NCBI RefSeq assembly: GCF_030013205.1
Contig: NZ_CP122648.1
Source: Escherichia coli
GTDB taxonomy: Bacteria; Pseudomonadota; Gammaproteobacteria; Enterobacterales; Enterobacteriaceae
DNA: 64,000 nt
Reading direction: 5' to 3' (one strand)
In this document: positions 1,759-62,989 of the stretch, one piece after another
How the letters are laid out: the number at the start of each line of letters is the position of its first letter
Numbering within the stretch: the first letter of the stretch is position 1
The notes under the pieces: model-generated
Database searches by the model: none
What the model saw: only the letters and a program-made list of their open reading frames with translations
What the model was told of the DNA's origin: nothing
Position numbers and translations under genes: made by a program

Positions 1759-2484
1759 TCAGAGTCTGAAGTCTTCCCCAAGGTATACACGCTTAACGTG
1801 TTCGTCTTGTAAGATTTCCGTAGGCGTGCCGTGGGCGATCAAATGCCCCTGACTGACGATATAAGCGCGTTCACAAACCGCCAGTGTTTCACGCACGTTG
1901 TGGTCAGTGATCAGTACGCCCAGGCCGCTGTCGCGCAGGTGCTCAATGATGCGTTTAATGTCGATAACCGAGATCGGGTCAACCCCGGCAAACGGTTCGT
2001 CGAGCAGAATAAATTTCGGATTCGCAGCCAGTGCGCGGGCAATTTCTACACGGCGACGTTCACCCCCGGAGAGTGACTGCCCCATGCTGTCACGCAGGTG
2101 CTCAATGTGAAACTCTTCCATCAGCTCGTTCGCGCGGTCTTCACGTTGTTCAGCAGACAAGTCGTCACGAATTTGCAGTACCGCCATCAGGTTATCGTAA
2201 ACGCTGAGGCGACGGAAAATGGAGGCTTCCTGTGGCAGATAGCCGATACCGCGGCGCGCGCGTGCATGCAGAGGCAGCAGACTGATATCGTCATCATCAA
2301 TAATGATGTTGCCCGCATCGCGCGGCACAATGCCTACAACCATGTAGAAAGTGGTGGTCTTACCGGCACCGTTTGGCCCCAGCAGACCGACAATTTCCCC
2401 GGAGTTGACGGTCAGGCTGACGTCTTCTACCACGCGACGGCCTTTATAGGCTTTTGCAAGGTTCTTTGCAGTTAATGTTGCCAT
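1759..2484 (-). CDS. lptB: LPS export ABC transporter ATP-binding protein
   Basis: 241 aa ORF with Walker [10 protein letters not shown] and ABC signature LSGGERRR. Confidence 0.95.
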
Positions 2485-2490
2485 AACGAA

Positions 2491-3048
2491 TTAATTACCC
2501 TTCTTCTGTGCCGGGGTCTGGCCTTTGTTGTTTTTGTCCTGCAGCTGCGACGGCACCAGAACGGTGGTTACGCGCTTACCTTTGTCGCTGAAAGCCTGCA
2601 TTTTCTGCTCTTTCACCAGGTAAGTGATCTTATCGCCCTTAATGTTGCTATCGACCTGCTGCAGATAAGCATTACCCGTCAGAACGACAAAATCTTTTGC
2701 CAGTTCGTAGTGCATCTGGGAAGCGTGACCTTCAACGGGTTTACCATTGTCCTGCATCTGGTAGAACGTTGCCGGTTTACCGTAGCCGTCAATCACTTCT
2801 TTACCTTGTTCGCCGCCCGGACGGGTAACGACCACTTTGTCGGCATTAATTTTGATGGTGCCCTGGGTGACGATGACATTACCGGTAAAGGTAACCACGT
2901 TGCCTTGCATATCAAGAGATTGCTGGTCCGATTCAATGTGGATCGGCTGATCAGTGTCTCCGGTTACGGCAAATGCCGGAATGCTGGCGGCCAGAAGTGA
3001 GCTGGCAAGCACAAGATTAAGGCTGAGTTTGTTTGTTTTGAATTTCAT
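2491..3048 (-). CDS. lptA: LPS transport periplasmic protein LptA
   Basis: ORF 2491..3069 trimmed to the internal Met giving MKFKTNKLSL and the known 185 aa length. Confidence 0.9.
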   Translation of the reverse strand: MKFKTNKLSLNLVLASSLLAASIPAFAVTGDTDQPIHIESDQQSLDMQGNVVTFTGNVIVTQGTIKINADKVVVTRPGGEQGKEVIDGYGKPATFYQMQDNGKPVEGHASQMHYELAKDFVVLTGNAYLQQVDSNIKGDKITYLVKEQKMQAFSDKGKRVTTVLVPSQLQDKNNKGQTPAQKKGN

Positions 3049-3592
3049 AGGATGTTCTAACCTTTTCAATCAGCTCGGCGTTCTTGCTGCGTAAGTTGCC
3101 GCGCATTTTCAGACCGCTGGAGTTAAATGTTGTTCCGTATAACGTGACGAGGTCTTCAGAGGTAACATCCTGCGTCACCAGATTGATCTGCGCGTTATCC
3201 GTCGTGATTCTGCGAAGTTGAGAGTCCGGCACAAGTGCGTTGACTTCAACGTGTCCATATAAATAGAGCATCCGGTCATTGGTCAGCTTGGCTTTATCTG
3301 CTTTTACGGACCATGTCGGGATTTTATCCTTATCAAACGTGGTAAGTACCGGCTGCGTAAACCACGAAACGGCCTGATCGGAATAATATTCAACATGTTG
3401 AGCAATCAATCGATAGCTTAGTGCCCCTTCTGGGTTATAGACGAGCGTGTCCGTATGCTCGCTTTTATAGGTGGGATCATTGTTGTTGACGACCACCTGG
3501 GCGGTATCGTCTTTTTCGGCCATATTAATGCCGATCATCACCAGAACCGCCAGTGATAGCACAATGATAACCCAACGTCTGGCTTTACTCAT
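3017..3592 (-). CDS. lptC: LPS export system protein LptC
   Basis: 191 aa ORF with N-terminal membrane anchor; 3' end overlaps the lptA start by 32 nt. Confidence 0.9.
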   Translation of the reverse strand: MSKARRWVIIVLSLAVLVMIGINMAEKDDTAQVVVNNNDPTYKSEHTDTLVYNPEGALSYRLIAQHVEYYSDQAVSWFTQPVLTTFDKDKIPTWSVKADKAKLTNDRMLYLYGHVEVNALVPDSQLRRITTDNAQINLVTQDVTSEDLVTLYGTTFNSSGLKMRGNLRSKNAELIEKVRTSYEIQNKQTQP

Positions 3593-4155
3593 ATCGATTG
3601 CCCTTTGGCTTCATCCAGTTTGCCCTGCGCCAGGAGTAATAAGTCGCAAACTTCACGCACTGCACCACGACCGCCAGCAATGCGCGTCACGTAATCGGCG
3701 CGCGGGAGCAACAGTGGATGCGCATCGGCCACGGCGACGCTTAAACCCACTTTTTCCATTACCGGCCAGTCGATGAGATCATCGCCGACATAAGCCACAT
3801 TTTCCGGGGCAATCGCCAGTTTTTCCAGCAAATCGCTAAAGGCGATCAGTTTGTTTGACTGCCCCTGATACAAGTGAGTGATCCCCAATGTGGCACAACG
3901 ATCTTCTACCAGTTTAGCCTTTCGCCCGGTAATGATAGCGACTTCAATATCAGAGGTGAGCGCACAACGAATGCCATAACCGTCACGAACATTGAACGCT
4001 TTCAGCTCTTCGCCATTATTGCCCATATAAATCAGGCCATCTGACAGTACGCCATCGACATCGAGGATCAGCAGACGAATGTTCTCTGCTTTTGCTATAA
4101 CGTCGGCGCTGACAGGGCCGTAACAGGTCGCAAGCGACGCACCTGCTTTGCTCAT
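3589..4155 (-). CDS. kdsC: KDO 8-phosphate phosphatase
   Basis: 188 aa ORF, HAD-family motif DVDGVLSDG; 4-bp overlap with lptC start. Confidence 0.9.
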   Translation of the reverse strand: MSKAGASLATCYGPVSADVIAKAENIRLLILDVDGVLSDGLIYMGNNGEELKAFNVRDGYGIRCALTSDIEVAIITGRKAKLVEDRCATLGITHLYQGQSNKLIAFSDLLEKLAIAPENVAYVGDDLIDWPVMEKVGLSVAVADAHPLLLPRADYVTRIAGGRGAVREVCDLLLLAQGKLDEAKGQSI

Positions 4156-4175
4156 TGTTGTTTATCCTTGAATCT

Positions 4176-5162
4176 TTACACTACGCCTGCACGCAGTAAA
4201 TCATGCATATGTAACACACCGAGTAAATGGTCGCCATCGGCAACCATCACGGAGGTGATATGGCGGGACTGCATTAAGTTCAGTGCCTCAACGGCCAGAA
4301 TGCCAGGGCGCACGCGTATTCCCCCCGGCGTCATAACATCGGCAATACTTAACTGACGAACATCCACGCCCATATCGAAGACACGGCGTAAATCACCGTC
4401 GGTAAAGATGCCTTCAATCATCATATTGTCATCGCAAATGACAGTCATACCAAGATTTTTGCGGGTAACTTCCAGCAATGCGTCACGCAGACTGGCCGTT
4501 TTCTTAACATGCGGGATCTCATCGCCCGTATGCATAATATCGTTTACGCGCAGCAGAAGTTTACGACCCAGTGCGCCGCCTGGATGTGAGAGCGCAAAAT
4601 CTTCGGCAGTAAAGCCGCGTGCTTTTAACAGCGCGACAGCGAGGGCATCGCCCATAACCAGCGTGGCGGTGGTGCTGCTGGTCGGTGCCAGCCCTAACGG
4701 ACAGGCTTCTTTCGCTACTTTAACACACAGATGAACATCTGCGGCGCGCGCCATGCTGCTCTCCGGGCGACCGGTGATGCAGATTAACGGTACGTGAAGA
4801 CGCTTAAGCACTGGAATTAAGGCCGTGATTTCGCTGGATTCACCTGAGTTAGAGATAGCAATCACCACATCCTGTGGGGTGACCATGCCTAAATCACCAT
4901 GCGCGGCTTCACCAGGATGGACGAAAAATGAAGGTGTACCGGTGCTGGCAAACGTTGCCGCCATTTTGCGCCCAATATGCCCCGATTTCCCCATCCCCAT
5001 GACGACAACTTTCCCTTTACACCAGAACATCTTTTCACAGGCAAGCGTGAAATTCTGATTGATGTATTGATCAAGCTCCGCCAGGCATTCACGTTCAATC
5101 GCCAGGACTTCTTTACCTGCTTGCTGAAAGTCAAAACCCGGTTGTAACTCTACGTGCGACAT
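4176..5162 (-). CDS. kdsD: D-arabinose 5-phosphate isomerase (SIS plus CBS domains)
   Basis: ORF 4176..5183 trimmed to MSHVELQ start (328 aa). Confidence 0.9.
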   Translation of the reverse strand: MSHVELQPGFDFQQAGKEVLAIERECLAELDQYINQNFTLACEKMFWCKGKVVVMGMGKSGHIGRKMAATFASTGTPSFFVHPGEAAHGDLGMVTPQDVVIAISNSGESSEITALIPVLKRLHVPLICITGRPESSMARAADVHLCVKVAKEACPLGLAPTSSTTATLVMGDALAVALLKARGFTAEDFALSHPGGALGRKLLLRVNDIMHTGDEIPHVKKTASLRDALLEVTRKNLGMTVICDDNMMIEGIFTDGDLRRVFDMGVDVRQLSIADVMTPGGIRVRPGILAVEALNLMQSRHITSVMVADGDHLLGVLHMHDLLRAGVV

Positions 5163-9171: not shown

Positions 9172-9172
<1 letters not shown>

Positions 9173-17320: not shown

Positions 17321-17567
17321 AATCTCGCGCTAACAACCTGGAATCGAGCCGTCATACTACGGCGCAACGCCCTATAAAGTAAACGATGACCCTTCGGGAA
17401 CTTCAGGGTAAAATGACTATCAAAATGTGAATTGTAGCTGACCTGGGACTTGTACCCGGGTCGGTATTTTTTTGCTTCTGGTCCCGGTGAGGAGTTATGC
17501 CGGGCAGGCCGAACAGCCGGGGTGGGTGAAGACTTGCCCCATCAGGAATATTCAAGAGGTATAACAA

Positions 17568-21371: not shown

Positions 21372-22220
21372 ATGAAACTCTTTGCCCAGGGCACTTCACT
21401 GGACCTTAGCCATCCTCACGTAATGGGGATCCTCAACGTCACGCCTGATTCCTTTTCGGATGGCGGCACGCATAACTCGCTGATAGATGCGGTGAAACAT
21501 GCGAATCTGATGATCAACGCTGGCGCGACGATCATTGACGTTGGTGGCGAGTCCACGCGCCCAGGAGCGGCGGAAGTTAGCGTTGAAGAAGAGTTGCAAC
21601 GTGTTATTCCTGTGGTTGAGGCAATTGCTCAACGCTTCGAAGTCTGGATCTCGGTCGATACATCCAAACCAGAAGTCATCCGTGAGTCAGCGAAAGTTGG
21701 CGCTCACATTATTAACGATATCCGCTCCCTTTCCGAACCAGGGGCTCTGGAGGCAGCTGCAGAAACCGGTTTACCGGTTTGTCTGATGCATATGCAGGGA
21801 AATCCAAAGACCATGCAGGAAGCCCCGAAGTATGACGATGTCTTTGCAGAAGTGAATCGCTATTTTATTGAGCAAATAGCACGTTGCGAGCAGGCGGGTA
21901 TCGCAAAAGAGAAATTGTTGCTCGACCCCGGATTCGGTTTCGGTAAAAATCTCTCCCATAACTATTCATTACTGGCGCGCCTGGCTGAATTTCACCATTT
22001 CAACCTGCCGCTGTTGGTGGGTATGTCACGAAAATCGATGATTGGGCAGCTGCTGAACGTGGGGCCGTCCGAGCGTCTGAGCGGTAGTCTGGCTTGTGCG
22101 GTCATTGCCGCTATGCAAGGCGCGCATATCATTCGTGTTCATGACGTCAAAGAAACCGTAGAAGCGATGCGGGTGGTGGAAGCCACTCTGTCTGCAAAGG
22201 AAAACAAACGCTATGAGTAA
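21372..22220 (+). CDS. folP: Dihydropteroate synthase
   Basis: ORF 21306..22220 trimmed to [10 protein letters not shown] (282 aa). Confidence 0.95.
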
Positions 22221-30259: not shown

Positions 30260-32908
30260 ATGACAGATGTAACGATTAAAACGCTGGCCGCAGAGCGACA
30301 GACCTCCGTGGAACGCCTGGTACAGCAATTTGCTGATGCAGGTATCCGGAAGTCTGCTGACGACTCTGTGTCCGCACAAGAGAAACAGACTTTGATTGAC
30401 CACCTGAATCAGAAAAATTCAGGCCCGGACAAATTGACGCTGCAACGTAAAACACGCAGCACCCTTAACATTCCTGGTACCGGTGGAAAAAGCAAATCGG
30501 TACAAATCGAAGTCCGCAAGAAACGCACCTTTGTGAAACGCGATCCGCAAGAGGCTGAACGCCTTGCTGCGGAAGAGCAAGCCCGTCGTGAGGCAGAAGA
30601 ATCGGCTAAACGCGAGGCGCAACAAAAAGCTGAACGTGAGGCCGCAGAACAAGCTAAGCGTGAAGCTGCTGAACAAGCGAAACGTGAAGCTGCGGAAAAA
30701 GACAAAGTGAGCAATCAACAAGACGATATGACTAAAAACGCCCAGGCTGAAAAAGCCCGCCGTGAGCAGGAAGCTGCAGAGCTCAAGCGTAAAGCCGAAG
30801 AAGAAGCGCGTCGTAAACTCGAAGAAGAAGCACGTCGCGTTGCTGAAGAAGCACGTCGTATGGCGGAAGAAAACAAATGGACTGATAACGCGGAACCGAC
30901 TGAAGATTCCAGCGATTATCACGTCACTACTTCTCAACATGCTCGCCAGGCAGAAGACGAAAGCGATCGTGAAGTCGAAGGCGGCCGTGGCCGTGGTCGT
31001 AACGCGAAAGCTGCGCGTCCGAAGAAAGGCAACAAACACGCTGAATCAAAAGCTGATCGTGAAGAAGCACGCGCAGCAGTACGTGGCGGTAAGGGCGGAA
31101 AACGTAAAGGTTCTTCGCTGCAGCAAGGCTTCCAGAAGCCTGCTCAGGCCGTTAACCGTGACGTTGTGATCGGCGAAACCATCACCGTTGGCGAACTGGC
31201 GAACAAGATGGCGGTTAAAGGCTCTCAGGTCATCAAAGCGATGATGAAACTGGGCGCAATGGCAACCATCAACCAGGTTATCGATCAGGAAACCGCACAG
31301 CTGGTTGCTGAAGAGATGGGCCACAAAGTTATCCTGCGTCGTGAAAACGAGCTGGAAGAAGCGGTAATGAGCGACCGTGACACGGGTGCAGCGGCTGAAC
31401 CGCGCGCGCCGGTTGTGACCATCATGGGTCACGTTGACCACGGTAAAACCTCTCTGCTGGACTACATTCGTTCAACGAAAGTGGCCTCTGGCGAAGCGGG
31501 CGGTATTACCCAGCACATTGGTGCATACCACGTTGAAACTGAAAACGGCATGATCACCTTCCTGGACACCCCGGGGCACGCCGCGTTTACTTCAATGCGT
31601 GCTCGTGGTGCGCAGGCAACGGACATCGTAGTCCTGGTTGTTGCTGCCGACGACGGCGTAATGCCGCAGACCATCGAAGCAATCCAGCACGCGAAAGCGG
31701 CGCAGGTTCCGGTGGTCGTTGCAGTGAACAAGATCGATAAACCAGAAGCCGATCCGGATCGCGTTAAGAACGAACTCTCCCAGTACGGCATCTTGCCGGA
31801 AGAGTGGGGCGGTGAAAGCCAGTTCGTACATGTGTCTGCGAAAGCGGGTACTGGTATCGATGAGCTGCTGGACGCTATCCTGCTGCAGGCGGAAGTTCTG
31901 GAACTGAAAGCGGTACGTAAAGGCATGGCGAGCGGTGCGGTTATCGAATCCTTCCTCGATAAAGGTCGTGGTCCGGTTGCTACCGTTCTGGTACGTGAAG
32001 GTACTCTGCACAAGGGCGATATCGTTCTGTGTGGCTTCGAATACGGTCGTGTTCGTGCGATGCGTAACGAACTGGGTCAGGAAGTGCTGGAAGCGGGTCC
32101 GTCCATTCCGGTGGAAATCCTCGGCCTGTCCGGCGTTCCGGCTGCGGGTGATGAAGTTACCGTTGTACGTGACGAGAAGAAAGCGCGTGAAGTTGCACTC
32201 TATCGTCAGGGTAAATTCCGCGAAGTTAAACTGGCGCGTCAGCAGAAATCTAAACTCGAGAACATGTTCGCCAACATGACCGAAGGCGAAGTTCACGAAG
32301 TGAATATCGTCCTTAAGGCAGACGTACAGGGTTCTGTGGAAGCTATCTCCGACTCCTTGCTGAAACTGTCTACTGACGAAGTTAAAGTGAAGATCATCGG
32401 TTCTGGCGTAGGTGGTATCACCGAAACCGACGCTACCCTGGCTGCGGCGTCCAACGCCATCCTGGTTGGCTTCAACGTACGTGCTGATGCCTCTGCACGT
32501 AAAGTGATTGAAGCGGAAAGCTTGGATCTGCGTTACTACTCCGTCATCTATAACCTGATCGACGAAGTGAAAGCGGCAATGAGCGGTATGCTGTCTCCGG
32601 AACTGAAACAACAGATTATCGGTCTGGCGGAAGTTCGTGACGTATTCAAATCACCGAAATTTGGTGCCATCGCAGGTTGTATGGTTACCGAAGGTGTGGT
32701 TAAACGTCACAACCCGATCCGCGTTCTGCGCGACAACGTGGTTATCTACGAAGGCGAGCTGGAGTCCCTGCGCCGCTTCAAAGATGACGTTAACGAAGTC
32801 CGTAACGGTATGGAATGTGGTATCGGCGTTAAGAACTACAACGACGTCCGCACTGGCGATGTGATCGAAGTATTCGAAATCATCGAAATCCAACGTACCA
32901 TCGCTTAA
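30260..32908 (+). CDS. infB: Translation initiation factor IF-2
   Basis: 882 aa; GTP-binding motifs GHVDHGKTS and DTPGH; Glu/Ala/Arg-rich N-terminal repeats. Confidence 0.95.
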
Positions 32909-33066: not shown

Positions 33067-33468
33067 ATGGCGAAAGAATTTGGTCGCCCGCAGCGCGTAG
33101 CGCAGGAAATGCAAAAAGAGATCGCTCTCATCCTGCAGCGTGAAATTAAAGATCCTCGTCTGGGCATGATGACCACCGTTTCCGGTGTCGAAATGTCTCG
33201 CGACCTGGCGTATGCCAAAGTATATGTAACGTTCCTCAACGACAAAGATGAAGACGCGGTTAAAGCGGGCATCAAAGCGCTGCAGGAAGCTTCTGGTTTC
33301 ATCCGCAGCCTGCTGGGGAAAGCGATGCGCCTGCGTATCGTGCCGGAACTGACCTTCTTCTACGACAACTCGCTGGTTGAAGGGATGCGCATGTCAAACC
33401 TGGTGACCAGCGTGGTCAAACATGACGAAGAACGTCGTGTTAACCCGGACGACAGCAAGGAGGACTAA
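33067..33468 (+). CDS. rbfA: Ribosome-binding factor A
   Basis: ORF 33037..33468 trimmed to [10 protein letters not shown] (133 aa). Confidence 0.95.
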
Positions 33469-38384: not shown

Positions 38385-40274
38385 ATGGCTGAATTCGAAA
38401 CCACTTTTGCAGATCTGGGCCTGAAGGCTCCTATCCTTGAAGCCCTTAACGATCTGGGTTACGAAAAACCATCTCCAATTCAGGCAGAGTGTATTCCACA
38501 TCTGCTGAATGGCCGCGACGTCCTGGGTATGGCCCAGACGGGGAGCGGAAAAACTGCAGCATTCTCTTTACCTCTGCTGCAGAATCTTGATCCTGAGCTG
38601 AAAGCACCACAGATTCTGGTGTTGGCACCGACCCGCGAACTGGCGGTACAGGTTGCTGAGGCAATGACGGATTTCTCTAAACACATGCGCGGCGTAAACG
38701 TGGTTGCCCTGTACGGCGGCCAGCGTTATGACGTGCAATTACGCGCCCTGCGTCAGGGGCCGCAGATCGTTGTCGGTACTCCGGGCCGTCTGCTGGATCA
38801 CCTGAAACGTGGCACTCTGGACCTTTCTAAACTGAGCGGTCTAGTTCTGGATGAAGCTGACGAAATGCTGCGCATGGGCTTCATCGAAGACGTTGAAACT
38901 ATTATGGCGCAGATCCCGGAAGGTCATCAGACCGCTCTGTTCTCTGCAACCATGCCGGAAGCGATTCGTCGCATTACCCGCCGCTTTATGAAAGAGCCGC
39001 AGGAAGTGCGCATTCAGTCCAGCGTGACTACCCGTCCTGACATCAGCCAGAGCTACTGGACTGTCTGGGGTATGCGTAAAAACGAAGCACTGGTACGTTT
39101 CCTGGAAGCGGAAGATTTTGATGCGGCGATTATCTTCGTTCGTACCAAAAATGCGACTCTGGAAGTGGCTGAAGCTCTTGAGCGTAACGGCTACAACAGC
39201 GCCGCGCTGAACGGTGACATGAACCAGGCGCTGCGTGAGCAGACACTGGAACGACTGAAAGATGGTCGTCTGGACATCCTGATTGCGACCGACGTTGCGG
39301 CCCGTGGCCTGGACGTTGAGCGTATCAGCCTGGTAGTTAACTACGATATCCCGATGGATTCTGAGTCTTACGTTCACCGTATCGGTCGTACTGGTCGTGC
39401 GGGCCGTGCTGGCCGTGCGCTGCTGTTCGTTGAGAACCGTGAGCGTCGTCTGCTGCGTAACATTGAACGCACCATGAAGCTGACCATTCCGGAAGTTGAA
39501 CTGCCGAACGCAGAACTGCTGGGCAAACGTCGTCTGGAAAAATTCGCCGCTAAAGTACAGCAGCAGCTGGAAAGCAGCGATCTGGATCAATACCGTGCAC
39601 TGCTGAGCAAAATTCAGCCGACGGCAGAAGGTGAAGAGCTGGATCTCGAAACTCTGGCCGCCGCACTGCTGAAAATGGCACAGGGTGAACGTACTCTGAT
39701 TGTTCCGCCAGATGCGCCGATGCGTCCGAAACGTGAATTCCGTGACCGTGATGACCGTGGTCCGCGCGATCGTAACGACCGTGGCCCGCGTGGTGACCGT
39801 GAAGATCGTCCGCGTCGTGAACGTCGTGATGTTGGCGATATGCAGCTGTACCGCATTGAAGTGGGCCGCGATGATGGTGTTGAAGTTCGTCATATCGTTG
39901 GCGCGATTGCTAACGAAGGCGACATCAGCAGCCGTTACATTGGTAACATCAAGCTGTTTGCTTCTCACTCCACCATCGAACTGCCGAAAGGTATGCCGGG
40001 TGAAGTGCTGCAACACTTTACGCGCACTCGCATTCTCAACAAGCCGATGAACATGCAGTTACTGGGCGATGCACAGCCGCATACTGGCGGTGAGCGTCGT
40101 GGCGGTGGTCGTGGTTTCGGTGGCGAACGTCGTGAAGGCGGTCGTAACTTCAGCGGTGAACGCCGTGAAGGTGGTCGTGGTGATGGTCGTCGTTTTAGCG
40201 GCGAACGTCGTGAAGGCCGCGCTCCGCGTCGTGATGACTCTACCGGTCGTCGTCGTTTCGGTGGTGATGCGTAA
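38385..40274 (+). CDS. deaD: Cold-shock DEAD-box RNA helicase
   Basis: ORF 38319..40274 trimmed to [11 protein letters not shown] (629 aa); DEAD box LDEADEM; Arg/Gly/Asp-rich C-terminal repeats. Confidence 0.95.
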
Positions 40275-41680: not shown

Positions 41681-43058
<1,378 letters not shown>

Positions 43059-46248: not shown

Positions 46249-46773
46249 GTGTTGGATAAACTGCGTTCCCGTATTGTGCATTTGGGGCCATCTCTGTTGA
46301 GTGTACCGGTAAAACTGACGCCATTTGCGCTAAAACGCCAGGTTCTTGAGCAGGTCCTAAGCTGGCAATTCCGTCAGGCGCTGAATGATGGCGAGCTGGA
46401 GTTTCTTGAAGGCCGCTGGTTAAGTATTCATGTGCGTGATATTGACCTGCAATGGTTTACCTCGGTGGTGAATGGCAAACTGGTCGTTAGCCAGAACGCG
46501 CAAGCTGATGTGAGTTTTAGTGCCGACGCCAGCGATCTGCTGATGATTGCGGCGCGTAAACAAGATCCGGATACGCTCTTCTTCCAGCGTCGGCTGGTAA
46601 TTGAAGGCGATACGGAGCTGGGGCTGTATGTGAAAAACCTGATGGACGCCATTGAACTGGAGCAAATGCCGAAAGCCTTACGCATGATGCTGCTGCAACT
46701 GGCGGATTTTGTTGAGGCGGGAATGAAAACCGCGCCTGAAACCAAACAGACATCGGTAGGTGAACCATGCTAA
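46249..46773 (+). CDS. ubiT: SCP2-domain ubiquinone biosynthesis accessory protein
   Basis: 174 aa from the GTG at 46249 (MLDKLRSRIV); ORF track begins at an upstream ATG (46225). Confidence 0.8.
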   Translation: MLDKLRSRIVHLGPSLLSVPVKLTPFALKRQVLEQVLSWQFRQALNDGELEFLEGRWLSIHVRDIDLQWFTSVVNGKLVVSQNAQADVSFSADASDLLMIAARKQDPDTLFFQRRLVIEGDTELGLYVKNLMDAIELEQMPKALRMMLLQLADFVEAGMKTAPETKQTSVGEPC

Positions 46774-47270
46774 TTCGAGTAGAAATTCCCATTGATGCGC
46801 CGGGTATTGATGCCCTGCTGCGTCGTTCATTCGAAAGTGATGCGGAAGCGAAGCTGGTTCACGATCTGCGTGAAGATGGCTTTCTGACGTTGGGGCTGGT
46901 GGCGACAGATGACGAAGGTCAGGTCATTGGCTATGTGGCATTTAGTCCGGTTGATGTGCAGGGCGAAGACCTGCAATGGGTCGGCATGGCACCGTTGGCG
47001 GTTGATGAAAAATACCGTGGACAGGGGCTGGCACGCCAACTGGTCTATGAAGGACTCGATTCGCTTAATGAGTTCGGCTATGCCGCAGTGGTGACGCTGG
47101 GCGATCCGGCGCTGTACAGTCGTTTCGGCTTTGAGCTGGCGGCGCATCACGATCTGCGTTGCCGCTGGCCGGGCACCGAAAGCGCCTTCCAGGTACATCG
47201 TTTAGCGGATGACGCGCTGAACGGCGTAACCGGTCTGGTTGAGTATCACGAGCATTTCAATCGCTTTTAA
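46767..47270 (+). CDS. yhbS: GNAT-family N-acetyltransferase
   Basis: 167 aa ORF overlapping the ubiT stop. Confidence 0.85.

Positions 47271-48032: not shown

Positions 48033-48053
<21 letters not shown>
47610..48053 (+). CDS. yhbP: UPF0306 family protein
   Basis: 147 aa ORF, conserved position. Confidence 0.8.
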
Positions 48054-51743: not shown

Positions 51744-52139
51744 TTATGAGTGGTCATTAAAGGCATCCTTAATCCACTCAACCTCATTCCCGGTGAAGGC
51801 TACCACATCGAACCGGCAATCCACAGTATCAAAACTCCCATTATGACGCGCGAGCCACAAGCGGGCAGTCTGTAATAATTTGTGTTGTTTGCTGCGGGTC
51901 ACACTGGCTGCCGCGCCGCCATAAAGCGCAGAGCGGCGGTAACGCACCTCGACAAAAACGGTGATCCGGCCTTCACGCATTATCAGATCGATCTCGCCGC
52001 CACGCTCGTTCACGTTAGCGGCGATAAACCGCAGTCCTTTGCCTTCCAGCCAGCGACGCGCTTGTGCTTCCCACGCATCGCCGGTCTGTTTGGTGGTTAA
52101 CTGGCGGGGACTACCTGACCTTGTTGGTACTGTAGCCAT
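51744..52139 (-). CDS. yraN: UPF0102 family protein
   Basis: 131 aa ORF, conserved position. Confidence 0.85.
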
Positions 52140-55878: not shown

Positions 55879-56670
55879 TTACAAAATGCCGAATGCAGAA
55901 CAAACAATAGAAAGAACAAACGTCACGCCGATTAACAGCACCGGATGCGCTTTTTTCACCCGCAGGAAGTAATACATCAGCAGGGTGTAGGCCATCGGTA
56001 AAATATTCGGGAAGACTTTATCGAAGAAATCCTGCTGCAGCGCGACGCTGTGGGTACTGTCGATGGCAAACGATGTCACCACGTTAATATGCACATACGA
56101 AGCGATCAGCCCGCCGATTACCGTGATCCCGAGGATGGTTGCCGAACGAGCAATCATCTGCGAGTTCTCTCGCACTTTATCGATCGCCTTCACGCCGACT
56201 GAATAACCGACGTGGGTCCAGCCGACGCGCAGGAAGAAGATAAGCAGGTAAACGGCGAAAAATAGAATCGGCCCCAGCAAGTTTCCCTGGCTGGCAAATG
56301 ATGAGCAAATTCCCGCCATAATCGGCAATAAGGTAAACCAGAAAATCGCATCGCCAATCCCGGCGATTGGGCCAAACAGTGCCACTTTGAGGCCTTTAAT
56401 GGTGTCGCGGTTTTCTCCTTTTTCTTCCATCGAAATTAATAACCCTATCAGGAATCCGACCAGATTCGGGTGGGTATTAATAAATTCGAGGTTATCTTTC
56501 ATCGCCGCGCTTAGGCCCGGTTTGTCGTCCTTATAAATCTTTTTCAGGCTCGGCAACATCGCCCAGGTAAAACCGCCCGCCTGCATCCTTTCGTAGTTAA
56601 AGCTCGCTTGCAGCAGTGACGAACGAAAGCCCAGACGGGTGATATCTTTTTTACTGATTTCAGATCCCAT
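55879..56670 (-). CDS. agaD: PTS galactosamine-specific IID component
   Basis: ORF 55879..56817 trimmed to MGSEISKKDITRL (263 aa). Confidence 0.85.
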   Translation of the reverse strand: MGSEISKKDITRLGFRSSLLQASFNYERMQAGGFTWAMLPSLKKIYKDDKPGLSAAMKDNLEFINTHPNLVGFLIGLLISMEEKGENRDTIKGLKVALFGPIAGIGDAIFWFTLLPIMAGICSSFASQGNLLGPILFFAVYLLIFFLRVGWTHVGYSVGVKAIDKVRENSQMIARSATILGITVIGGLIASYVHINVVTSFAIDSTHSVALQQDFFDKVFPNILPMAYTLLMYYFLRVKKAHPVLLIGVTFVLSIVCSAFGIL

Positions 56671-60522: not shown

Positions 60523-61656
60523 TCAAAACGAAGCTAATTGACCCTGAATCCAGATTTGTTGCACATGTAGCCCGCTATCCAGCGCAACGACGCTGGCGCG
60601 TTTGCCCGGTTTAAGCGATCCCAGAACACCATCAACACCCAGCATTCGCGCCGGATGCAGCGACGCCATATGGATGGCTTCCGCAGGCGTTACGCCCGTT
60701 AACTCGACCATGTTGCGCACTGCTGCATCGACAGATAGCGTACTGCCCGCCAGCCCACCGGACGCGGTACGGACAACGCCACCGTGCATCTGCACTTCTT
60801 CGCCACATAACGTATAGCGACCATCCGGCATCCCAGCTGCCTGCATCGCGTCGGTGATCAGTACGATTCTCTCTTTCGCACAGCAACAACACAGCGACAT
60901 CGCCGCCGGATGCACATGATGACCATCGGCTATCAGTTCCAGCCAGGCGCGCTTGTCCGTTAATCCCGCGCCAACCATTCCCGGTTCGCGGTGATGTAAA
61001 CCTGTCATCCCGTTATAGCAATGCACCAGGCCGTCGGCACCAGCATCAAATGCGGCGCGGGTTTGTTGCCAGGTCGCCGCGCTATGCCCCAGCATCACCC
61101 TTACGTTTTGCTGTTTAAGATGGCGGATGGCCTGCAATGCCCCTTCTTTTTCCGGTGCCAGCGCTACCACGCGTAAGGTGTGCTGAGAAACGGCAATCAA
61201 TTGATCCAGCTCGGCAATTTCCAGCTCGCGAAACAGCTCCGGTGGATGCGCGCCTTTATTCTGCGGCGTGAAGTACGGTCCTTCGAGATAACTCCCCAGC
61301 ACTTGCGCACCAGGTCCGCCGCGTTGGCAACGTTGAGCAATACGTTTCAGCGCCGCATGAATGGTATTAAGCGGCGCGGTTACGGTGGTCGGTAACCAAC
61401 TGCCGACACCTTCGCATGCCTTGTGCATTGCCAGCTTGTCGAGTACATCCGGCGCGTCATCCATTACATCAACGCCCGCACCACCGTGTACATGGGTGTC
61501 GATGTAAGCGGGGCAGAGCAGTTCCGCATCGCGTTCAGTCACGCCCACTGGAATCGGTTCGATTGCTGCGATGACACCGTCAGCAATACGCAACTGATGG
61601 TCATCGAGCCATCCCTCTTCAGTTAGCAGCCTTCTGGCGCGCAGAACGGGTGTCAT
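60523..61656 (-). CDS. agaA: N-acetylgalactosamine-6-phosphate deacetylase, full length
   Basis: ORF 60523..61677 trimmed to MTPVLRARRLL (377 aa); NagA-like metal-binding residues. Confidence 0.85.
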   Translation of the reverse strand: MTPVLRARRLLTEEGWLDDHQLRIADGVIAAIEPIPVGVTERDAELLCPAYIDTHVHGGAGVDVMDDAPDVLDKLAMHKACEGVGSWLPTTVTAPLNTIHAALKRIAQRCQRGGPGAQVLGSYLEGPYFTPQNKGAHPPELFRELEIAELDQLIAVSQHTLRVVALAPEKEGALQAIRHLKQQNVRVMLGHSAATWQQTRAAFDAGADGLVHCYNGMTGLHHREPGMVGAGLTDKRAWLELIADGHHVHPAAMSLCCCCAKERIVLITDAMQAAGMPDGRYTLCGEEVQMHGGVVRTASGGLAGSTLSVDAAVRNMVELTGVTPAEAIHMASLHPARMLGVDGVLGSLKPGKRASVVALDSGLHVQQIWIQGQLASF

Positions 61657-62104: not shown

Positions 62105-62989
62105 TTAAAGGAAATGGCAGAATTTACCGACGATGCCGAGAACCACGGTCACTGCAATCAGGCGCAGCGGACTCCAGCCGCGGCGTACCAGCCAGAACAT
62201 GGTCAGGGTGTAGACCAGCGGTAAGAAGGCAGGCATCAGTTTGTCGATAACATCAGCCTGTAACTTAACCACTGCGTCGCCCGCTGTGATTTCCAGCGTG
62301 GTGCTTAAACGAACATAGGTTGCCACCAGCGCGCCGATTACCGTCATCCCAACGATAGACGCAGCATGGCCGACTTTTTTGGTATTCGCTTTAATGAGTG
62401 GAATCGCCGCCACGCCCATGCGGTAAGCATAATGCGCCAGACCAAAACGCAGCCCCAGGTGTACCACGTTGAACAGCACAATAAAGACGACTGCGCCAAG
62501 AATAGAGCCTTGTAGCGCGAGGCTTGCGCCTATCCCACCACAAATCGGCAGTAGCGTCAGCCAGAACATTGCATCGCCAATCCCGCCAAGTGGCGCACCG
62601 ACGGCAATTTTGGTGCTCTGAATACTGTTAACGTCCTGCTTAGAACGCTCCATCGCAAGGATAATGCCGATAACAAACGTCACCAGAAACGGATGGGTAT
62701 TGAAGAAACCCATATGCCCCTTCATGGCGCGCGCCAGGTCGCGTTTATTAGTGTGGATCTTTTTCAGAGCAGGCAGCAGACCGTACAACCAGCTAGAAGC
62801 CTGCATACGTTCGTAGTTAAAAGACGCTTGTAACAGCATGGAACGCCAGGCGACGCGGTTGATATCTTTTTTCGTCAGCTCTGCGCCAATGCTCTGATCT
62901 TCATACACGTTTTCATTGACGCCTGTCAGCAGTGTTTCTTCGTTTTCACTGACGTTCGGCAGGGTGGTTTGATTAGATGCCATCTTCAA
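62105..62989 (-). CDS. agaE: PTS N-acetylgalactosamine-specific IID component
   Basis: 294 aa ORF paralogous to agaD; exact start uncertain. Confidence 0.8.
   Translation of the reverse strand: MKMASNQTTLPNVSENEETLLTGVNENVYEDQSIGAELTKKDINRVAWRSMLLQASFNYERMQASSWLYGLLPALKKIHTNKRDLARAMKGHMGFFNTHPFLVTFVIGIILAMERSKQDVNSIQSTKIAVGAPLGGIGDAMFWLTLLPICGGIGASLALQGSILGAVVFIVLFNVVHLGLRFGLAHYAYRMGVAAIPLIKANTKKVGHAASIVGMTVIGALVATYVRLSTTLEITAGDAVVKLQADVIDKLMPAFLPLVYTLTMFWLVRRGWSPLRLIAVTVVLGIVGKFCHFL

Follow-up and report, generated by a model that had tools for sequence, protein, structure and literature searches.

The 32-nt overlap between lptC and lptA in Escherichia coli: a genuine, conserved and already documented gene junction

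In Escherichia coli K-12, the genes lptC (yrbK) and lptA (yhbN) belong to the yrbG-lptB operon studied by the Sperandeo/Polissi laboratory, and a 32-nt overlap between the two has already been stated for E. coli (PMC4986956); the K-12 spacing is tabulated as -32 in the supplements to PMC10666635. [quoted passage not shown] LptA and LptB continue to be produced in cells that do not transcribe lptC, with lptAB driven at a lower level by a promoter within lptC (PMC8727689). The junction examined here comes from a strain other than K-12; its genes, their arrangement and the overlap of 32 nt are as in K-12, and we found nothing of substance in which it differs from the K-12 junction (PMC4986956).

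The commonest spacings of overlapping genes are -4, -1 and -8 (PMC10666635, PMC12548453), and the coupled pairs described at these spacings resemble lptC/lptA in that the genes are co-directional, lie on one transcript, encode subunits of a complex and have the downstream start inside the upstream gene (PMC6728339, PMC10666635). In contrast with such pairs, the lptC stop lies 32 nt past the lptA start, which is outside the range of efficient reinitiation, and lptA has an independent transcript as well. A similar distance is found for the coat and lysis genes of phages fr and MS2 (Adhin and van Duin 1990, via PMC10666635 and PMC12548453), where the lysis start precedes the upstream stop by about 30 nt and terminating ribosomes are proposed to move backward to it. 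The phage lysis start is otherwise silent and its expression is deliberately low (PMC10666635, PMC12548453), whereas lptA is essential, has promoters of its own and begins in an unstructured region. In a survey of 2.66 million gene pairs, the pair LptC@LptA (COG3117@COG1934) had a median spacing of -14 nt (quartiles -23 and +1, n=364), the 11th longest median in Table S4 of PMC10666635. Thus, the surveyed pairs typically overlap too, and the Enterobacteriaceae stand at the long end, with an overlap fixed at 32 nt.

We analyzed a stretch of 64,000 nt of an E. coli genome (contig NZ_CP122648.1 of assembly GCF_030013205.1; hereafter the window, to which all positions refer). The RefSeq (PGAP) annotation of strain EC556 was carried onto the window by BLAST, and all transferred genes were intact ORFs. 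The order of genes on the minus strand is hpf, rpoN, lptB, lptA, lptC, kdsC, kdsD and yrbG; the window further contains mlaFEDCB, murA, rplU-obgE, ftsH-folP-glmM, nusA-infB-rbfA-truB-rpsO-pnp and the aga cluster. When a 3-kb stretch around the lptC-lptA junction was compared with complete E. coli genomes, a match was found in 5425 of 5426, and the stretch was 100% identical to several chromosomes of pig E. coli (ETEC/O139). The 85 nt of the junction itself were at least 99% identical in 5418 of the 5425 matching genomes. A single genome (1/5426) had no match to the lptC-lptA region, and another carried a second, plasmid-borne copy of lptC-lptA. For the analysis of conservation, the locus was collected from 80 species of Enterobacteriaceae with LptA identities of 80-100%. 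The protein homologue search yielded close Enterobacteriaceae only, and distant relatives were obtained by a search of representatives and look-ups of contigs. The coordinates of the features are collected in the table.

Table. Positions of lptC, lptA and associated features, and of the other co-directional overlaps in the window
Feature	Position	Strand	Remarks
lptC coding sequence	3017..3592	(-)	191 aa; intact ORF; PGAP annotation transferred at 100% identity
lptA coding sequence	2491..3048	(-)	185 aa with signal peptide; intact ORF
lptC/lptA overlap	3017..3048	(-)	32 nt
Near-invariant block GAGCTGATTGAAAAGGTTAGA	3055..3075	(-)	-27..-7 from the lptA ATG; presumed ribosome-binding region
Raised synonymous-site conservation, lptC 3' end	3017..3110	(-)	Third-codon-position identity
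sigmaE-like motif GGAACAA-N16-TCTGA	3109..3136	(-)	Candidate for lptAp1
kdsC/lptC overlap	3589..3592	(-)	4 nt, ATGA; -4 in K-12 (PMC10666635 supplements)
mlaC/mlaB overlap	9172..9172	(+)	1 nt, TAATG
folP/glmM overlap	22213..22220	(+)	8 nt
rbfA/truB overlap	33468..33468	(+)	1 nt, TAATG; strong SD AAGGAGG inside rbfA
yrbN/deaD overlap	38385..38392	(+)	8 nt; absent from the preliminary description
ubiT/yhbS overlap	46767..46773	(+)	7 nt; absent from the preliminary description
lpoA/yraN overlap	52097..52139	(-)	43 nt; longest co-directional overlap in the window; -43 in K-12 (PMC10666635 supplement); absent from the preliminary description
agaC/agaD overlap	56660..56670	(-)	11 nt; absent from the preliminary description
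agaF/agaA overlap	61653..61656	(-)	4 nt, ATGA
agaW/agaE overlap	62973..62983	(-)	11 nt; absent from the preliminary description

Comparison with family profiles confirmed the identity of the two proteins. LptC matched NCBIfam NF008142 over residues 1-191 with 364.1 bits (cutoff 230) and is thus a full-length member; it also matched TIGR04409 over residues 6-182 (176.7 bits, cutoff 38) and Pfam PF06835 over residues 9-183 (185.8 bits, cutoff 21). LptA belongs to NCBIfam NF008143, with residues 1-185 aligned to profile positions 1-184 (368.4 bits, cutoff 234); its mature part, residues 28-166, matched TIGR03002 (172.9 bits, cutoff 71.7), and there was a match to Pfam PF03968 (LptD_N) with 121.3 bits (cutoff 20.4). 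The 32 shared nucleotides comprise LptC codons 182-191 (Y182-P191) with the TAA stop and, in a different reading frame, LptA codons 1-10 (M1-L10) plus 2 nt, which make up the n-region of the signal peptide. The overlap is located outside the family models, as TIGR04409 and PF06835 end at LptC residues 182 and 183, respectively, and TIGR03002 begins at LptA residue 28. The preliminary description, made from the sequence, had given an overlap of 32 nt, which proved to be exact with both ORFs intact; annotation transfer, family profiles and ORF coordinates likewise bore out its gene identities and the existence of the other overlaps that it had named.

To judge the junction further, we compared the orthologous operons, a check that the preliminary description had itself proposed. 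The lptA ATG at 3048 was found in all 80 species, and the overlap was exactly 32 nt in 76 of them; in the other four it was 17, 17, 101 and 170 nt, because the lptC stop is altered there. The basic n-region of LptA, M-K-x-[KRQ]-x-N-K, was conserved. When the 80 loci were aligned, conservation within the lptC-lptA region was highest over the stretch 3120..3016, and positions 3075..3061 within it had a mean column identity of 0.998, the wobble sites of lptC included. The near-invariant block GAGCTGATTGAAAAGGTTAGA contains AAGG as a weak and distal Shine-Dalgarno (SD) sequence of lptA; the energy of the SD:anti-SD pairing was -3.4 kcal/mol at a spacing of 11 nt, which ranks 54th among 67 genes of the window.

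Third codon positions of lptC were identical at a level of 0.865 over the last 31 codons vs 0.60 in the gene body (Mann-Whitney p=2e-11), and the 21 codons upstream of the lptA ATG alone gave 0.861 (p=9e-9). In lptA, third positions were 0.99 identical in the overlap vs 0.65 elsewhere. Both frames are therefore under constraint within the overlap (0.99 for lptA and 0.87 for lptC), as expected of a stretch that codes for two proteins. Substitutions in the overlap were synonymous in lptC and changed residues 3-5 of LptA conservatively (F/S, K/R/Q, T/I), so that of the two segments the LptC tail is under the stronger constraint. The lptC start region lies in the 3' end of kdsC, and third positions of kdsC were likewise more conserved there (0.78 vs 0.55), so constraint of this kind is the ordinary signature of an embedded start site. 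Judged from the alignment, the constraint at the 3' end of lptC is the usual embedded-start signature, lengthened by the dual-coding stretch, and it fits an embedded lptA ribosome-binding region.

Two other start codons of lptA were considered and rejected. The TTG at 3067..3069 (-) would give an overlap of 53 nt; it is the earliest codon at which the lptA ORF could start, located immediately after an in-frame TGA, and it is conserved in 80 of the 80 species. The lptC codons CTG-ATT-GAA, together with the constraint on the initiation region, account for this conservation. Moreover, in 6 of the 80 species GTT is changed to GTG in lptC, which introduces an in-frame TGA between the TTG and the ATG, and the two codons directly before the ATG, which fall on lptC wobble sites, are hypervariable (H/P/A/L/R and P/H/L/R/S), since they change radically with every wobble change in lptC. 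The TGA and the variation of these codons indicate that the lptA frame is noncoding upstream of the ATG. The NF008143 profile also begins at the residue encoded by the ATG at 3048 and not at the TTG, and a start at the TTG can be regarded as extremely improbable. The preliminary description had named an upstream Met at 3069 as the start whose use would refute the overlap; the codon is TTG (Leu) and not Met, and initiation at this site would extend the overlap rather than remove it. In the opposite direction, the overlap could be an artefact of annotation, with lptA starting at the GTG of codon 13 (3012..3010; minus strand), 4 nt past the lptC stop. Long overlaps are frequently mispredictions of the start codon, and this general experience speaks for such an artefact. 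Rhodius et al. (PMC1312014) hint, in addition, at a misannotation near the 5' end of the lptA ORF. Against this, codon 13 was GTG or ATG in just 31 of the 80 species, and 20 of the 80 had no in-frame ATG, GTG or TTG in lptA codons 12-30, whereas the ATG at 3048 was invariant. Initiation at the GTG would also drop the conserved basic n-region (K2, K/R/Q4, K7). The curated full-length LptA model aligns from residue 1, and third positions of lptA are 0.99 identical in the overlap; hence, we give the GTG next to no credence. The downstream start is thus conserved and no alternative start is, as should be the case for a real overlapping pair. Since the ATG is present in 80 of the 80 species, the TTG is blocked by TGA and the downstream start is unconserved, the comparison of sequences supports the ATG at 3048 well as the start of lptA. 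The supplements of TRAINSPOTTER and INRI-seq had no entry for lptA.

The remaining alternatives concern how the lptA start is used. The preliminary description had seen tight translational coupling in the overlap. On this view, ribosomes that end lptC at 3017 would move backward by some 30 nt to reinitiate at the ATG of lptA, and the output of LptA would be locked to that of LptC. Several observations are in line with this. The lptA SD is weak and distal, the pair is marked as complex subunits ('CMPLX yes') in the supplements to PMC10666635, its phase (-8-3k) is the commoner one among long overlaps (PMC10666635), the overlap is widely conserved, and backward scanning over the 34-nt overlap of the phage fr coat and lysis genes (cited in PMC10666635) offers a precedent. 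However, a spacing of -8 to +10 nt is treated as predictive of reinitiation (PMC10666635), and that of lptC/lptA, at -32, lies outside this range. For native E. coli pairs, reinitiation, a local event, falls by 80-100% at a separation of 38 nt, a value measured for downstream spacing (PMC10666635). lptA is, furthermore, expressed from transcripts that start inside lptC (PMC4986956, PMC8727689); this expression from internal promoters and the complementation of LptC depletion in trans speak indirectly against an obligatory dependence of lptA translation on that of lptC. In relatives the overlap is 14-32 nt or absent, and such variable length suggests that no fixed geometry is needed. Our literature search found no paper that ties lptA/lptC to translational coupling. 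We therefore consider tight coupling, including the locking of LptA output to LptC output, to be unlikely, and with a spacing of -32 and expression of lptAB without transcription of lptC, the claim is left unsupported. It might also be supposed that RNA structure masks the lptA start and is opened by ribosomes translating lptC, but this was rejected, as the minus strand showed no significant RNA structure over 2990..3100 (z=-0.2 vs shuffles).

A further possibility is that the conserved block of about 95 nt hides an additional element, such as an sRNA or protein site, an SD-independent enhancer or a recoding signal for an LptC-LptA fusion. The synonymous constraint in lptC begins approximately 60 nt upstream of the lptA ATG, a longer reach than at the kdsC/lptC junction; the ATG is followed by a CA/A-rich run, and one metagenomic ORF joins LptC and LptA. 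The lack of RNA structure argues against an additional element, as does the lack of any Rfam family in 2400..3700, even at E<=1. The kdsC 3' end shows constraint of the same kind, typical of embedded starts, and the published promoters and the 5' UTR inside lptC can explain the extra length of the block (PMC4986956). As for the metagenomic fusion, the signal peptide of LptA is still present and the C-terminus of LptC is garbled, so that it resembles a frameshift error. An additional element of this sort thus seems very improbable. As a related proposal drawn from the conservation pattern, the segment of raised synonymous conservation could be dedicated to post-transcriptional control and set the LptA:LptC ratio under LPS-transport stress, a role that we regard as quite unlikely; a binding site for an sRNA or a protein, or an SD-independent enhancer, could serve as examples of such an element.

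The reading that we prefer is that initiation of lptA is probably largely autonomous, with coupling to lptC at most partial and not obligatory. The lptA ATG at 3048 lies ten codons before the end of lptC in another frame, and the 32 shared nucleotides encode parts outside the family cores, namely the tail of LptC and the positively charged n-region of LptA. The presumed ribosome-binding region of lptA is contained wholly in the lptC coding sequence, where it is held almost invariant. Both the long operon transcript and the transcripts of the minor promoters inside lptC give rise to LptA, and ribosomes would bind de novo to a site that is A-rich and unstructured and has a weak, distal SD. The internal promoters are weaker than the operon promoter, which makes the operon transcript the main source of lptA. 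Some coupling on this main transcript may occur: the weak and distal SD would fit a dependence on upstream ribosomes, LptC and LptA are parts of the same complex, as is common for coupled genes, among which such pairs are enriched (PMC10666635), and phage fr offers a precedent. The relative weight of autonomous and coupled initiation given here is what we infer.

For the promoters inside lptC, a sigmaE promoter was sought as a -35 element GGAACTT and a -10 element TCAAA or TCTGA, about 16 nt apart, upstream of lptA. The motif at 3136..3109 has 4 mismatches to the Rhodius consensus and was for this reason missed at <=3 mismatches. The pattern GGAAC-N18-TCTGA had a single match in the window, where 0.13 were expected by chance, and the motif would put the transcription start approximately 50 nt upstream of the lptA ATG. 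The elements GGAAC...TC..A were kept in 5 of 79 species and were poorly conserved outside Escherichia. From its sequence and position, this motif may correspond to the published lptAp1. Inside the 5' end of lptA, where a sigmaE consensus could have accounted for the remark of Rhodius et al., none was found at <=3 mismatches, and a scan of 2400..4300 for sigma70-type promoters gave no match on the minus strand. The wording of Rhodius et al. (PMC1312014) is at odds with that of later papers, which site the promoters upstream of lptA within lptC.

Among distant relatives of LptA (36-52% identity), the overlaps were 26, 20, 20 and 14 nt, and one junction had a gap of 21 nt, all according to automated gene calls; these values agree with the published survey (PMC10666635 supplements). 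In a 650-kb genome (LN890288.1, and similarly in OZ026457.1) the gene calls give the order lptC-lptB-lptA (852..3004 of L090/L091), so that lptA has been separated from lptC by rearrangement and the overlap is lost. A metagenomic ORF of 348 aa (P0189; L092 2501..3547) contains domains of LptC as well as of LptA; low-complexity sequence takes the place of the C-terminal third of LptC, and the signal peptide of LptA is still there. As a hint of a natural LptC-LptA fusion or of recoding this ORF was rejected, since it is probably due to a frameshift or an assembly error into the overlapping lptA frame.

The lptC/lptA overlap is thus genuine, conserved, already documented and ordinary. Essentially all E. 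coli genomes carry it in their annotation, and it has little significance beyond bookkeeping; our comparison lends some modest further support to the start of lptA as annotated. A deletion or recoding of the 3' end of lptC would also hit the start and the ribosome-binding region of lptA as well as the internal promoters. This practical constraint is already familiar to those who work on the locus; genetic constructs should spare the overlap, which is fixed at 32 nt in the Enterobacteriaceae, and the invariant block at -27..-7.

Overlaps were found in 11 of the 48 co-directional neighbour pairs of the window (23%). In E. coli, 24% of unidirectional pairs are spaced between -8 and +6 (PMC10666635), and 11/48 is the normal bacterial proportion (PMC10666635, PMC12548453); short overlaps are therefore no commoner here than expected. 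More than 80% of overlaps are shorter than 30 bp (PMC12548453). An overlap of at least 30 nt is uncommon, yet that of lptC/lptA is one that is real and conserved. The preliminary description had spoken of multiple overlaps of 4-8 bp, which holds for kdsC/lptC (4), folP/glmM (8) and agaF/agaA (4) but not for mlaC/mlaB and rbfA/truB, which share 1 nt. By analogy with other pairs, coupling through termination-reinitiation would be a reasonable general expectation at the -1, -4 and -8 junctions (PMC6728339, PMC10666635). There were also two convergent (tail-to-tail) overlaps, yhbS/yhbQ of 14 nt (47257..47270) and yhbP/yhbO of 21 nt (48033..48053).

Some minor features were observed elsewhere in the window. 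A perfect sigmaE consensus, GGAACTT-N16-TCAAA, is present upstream of greA at 17397..17424 (+) and falls within the Rfam match to the greA leader (17351..17472). The infB gene (30260..32908, plus strand) is 8 codons shorter than in EC556, as AEEQAQRE is absent after residue 103, in the repetitive N-terminal region, which represents an in-frame length polymorphism. A further difference from EC556 is a 7-nt indel at about 28073 (+), where CCCTTAG is missing directly 3' of the metY tRNA. Between mtr and yhbW, there is an ORF for an IS621 (IS110-family) transposase (41932..42912, plus strand), which is 100% identical in EC556.
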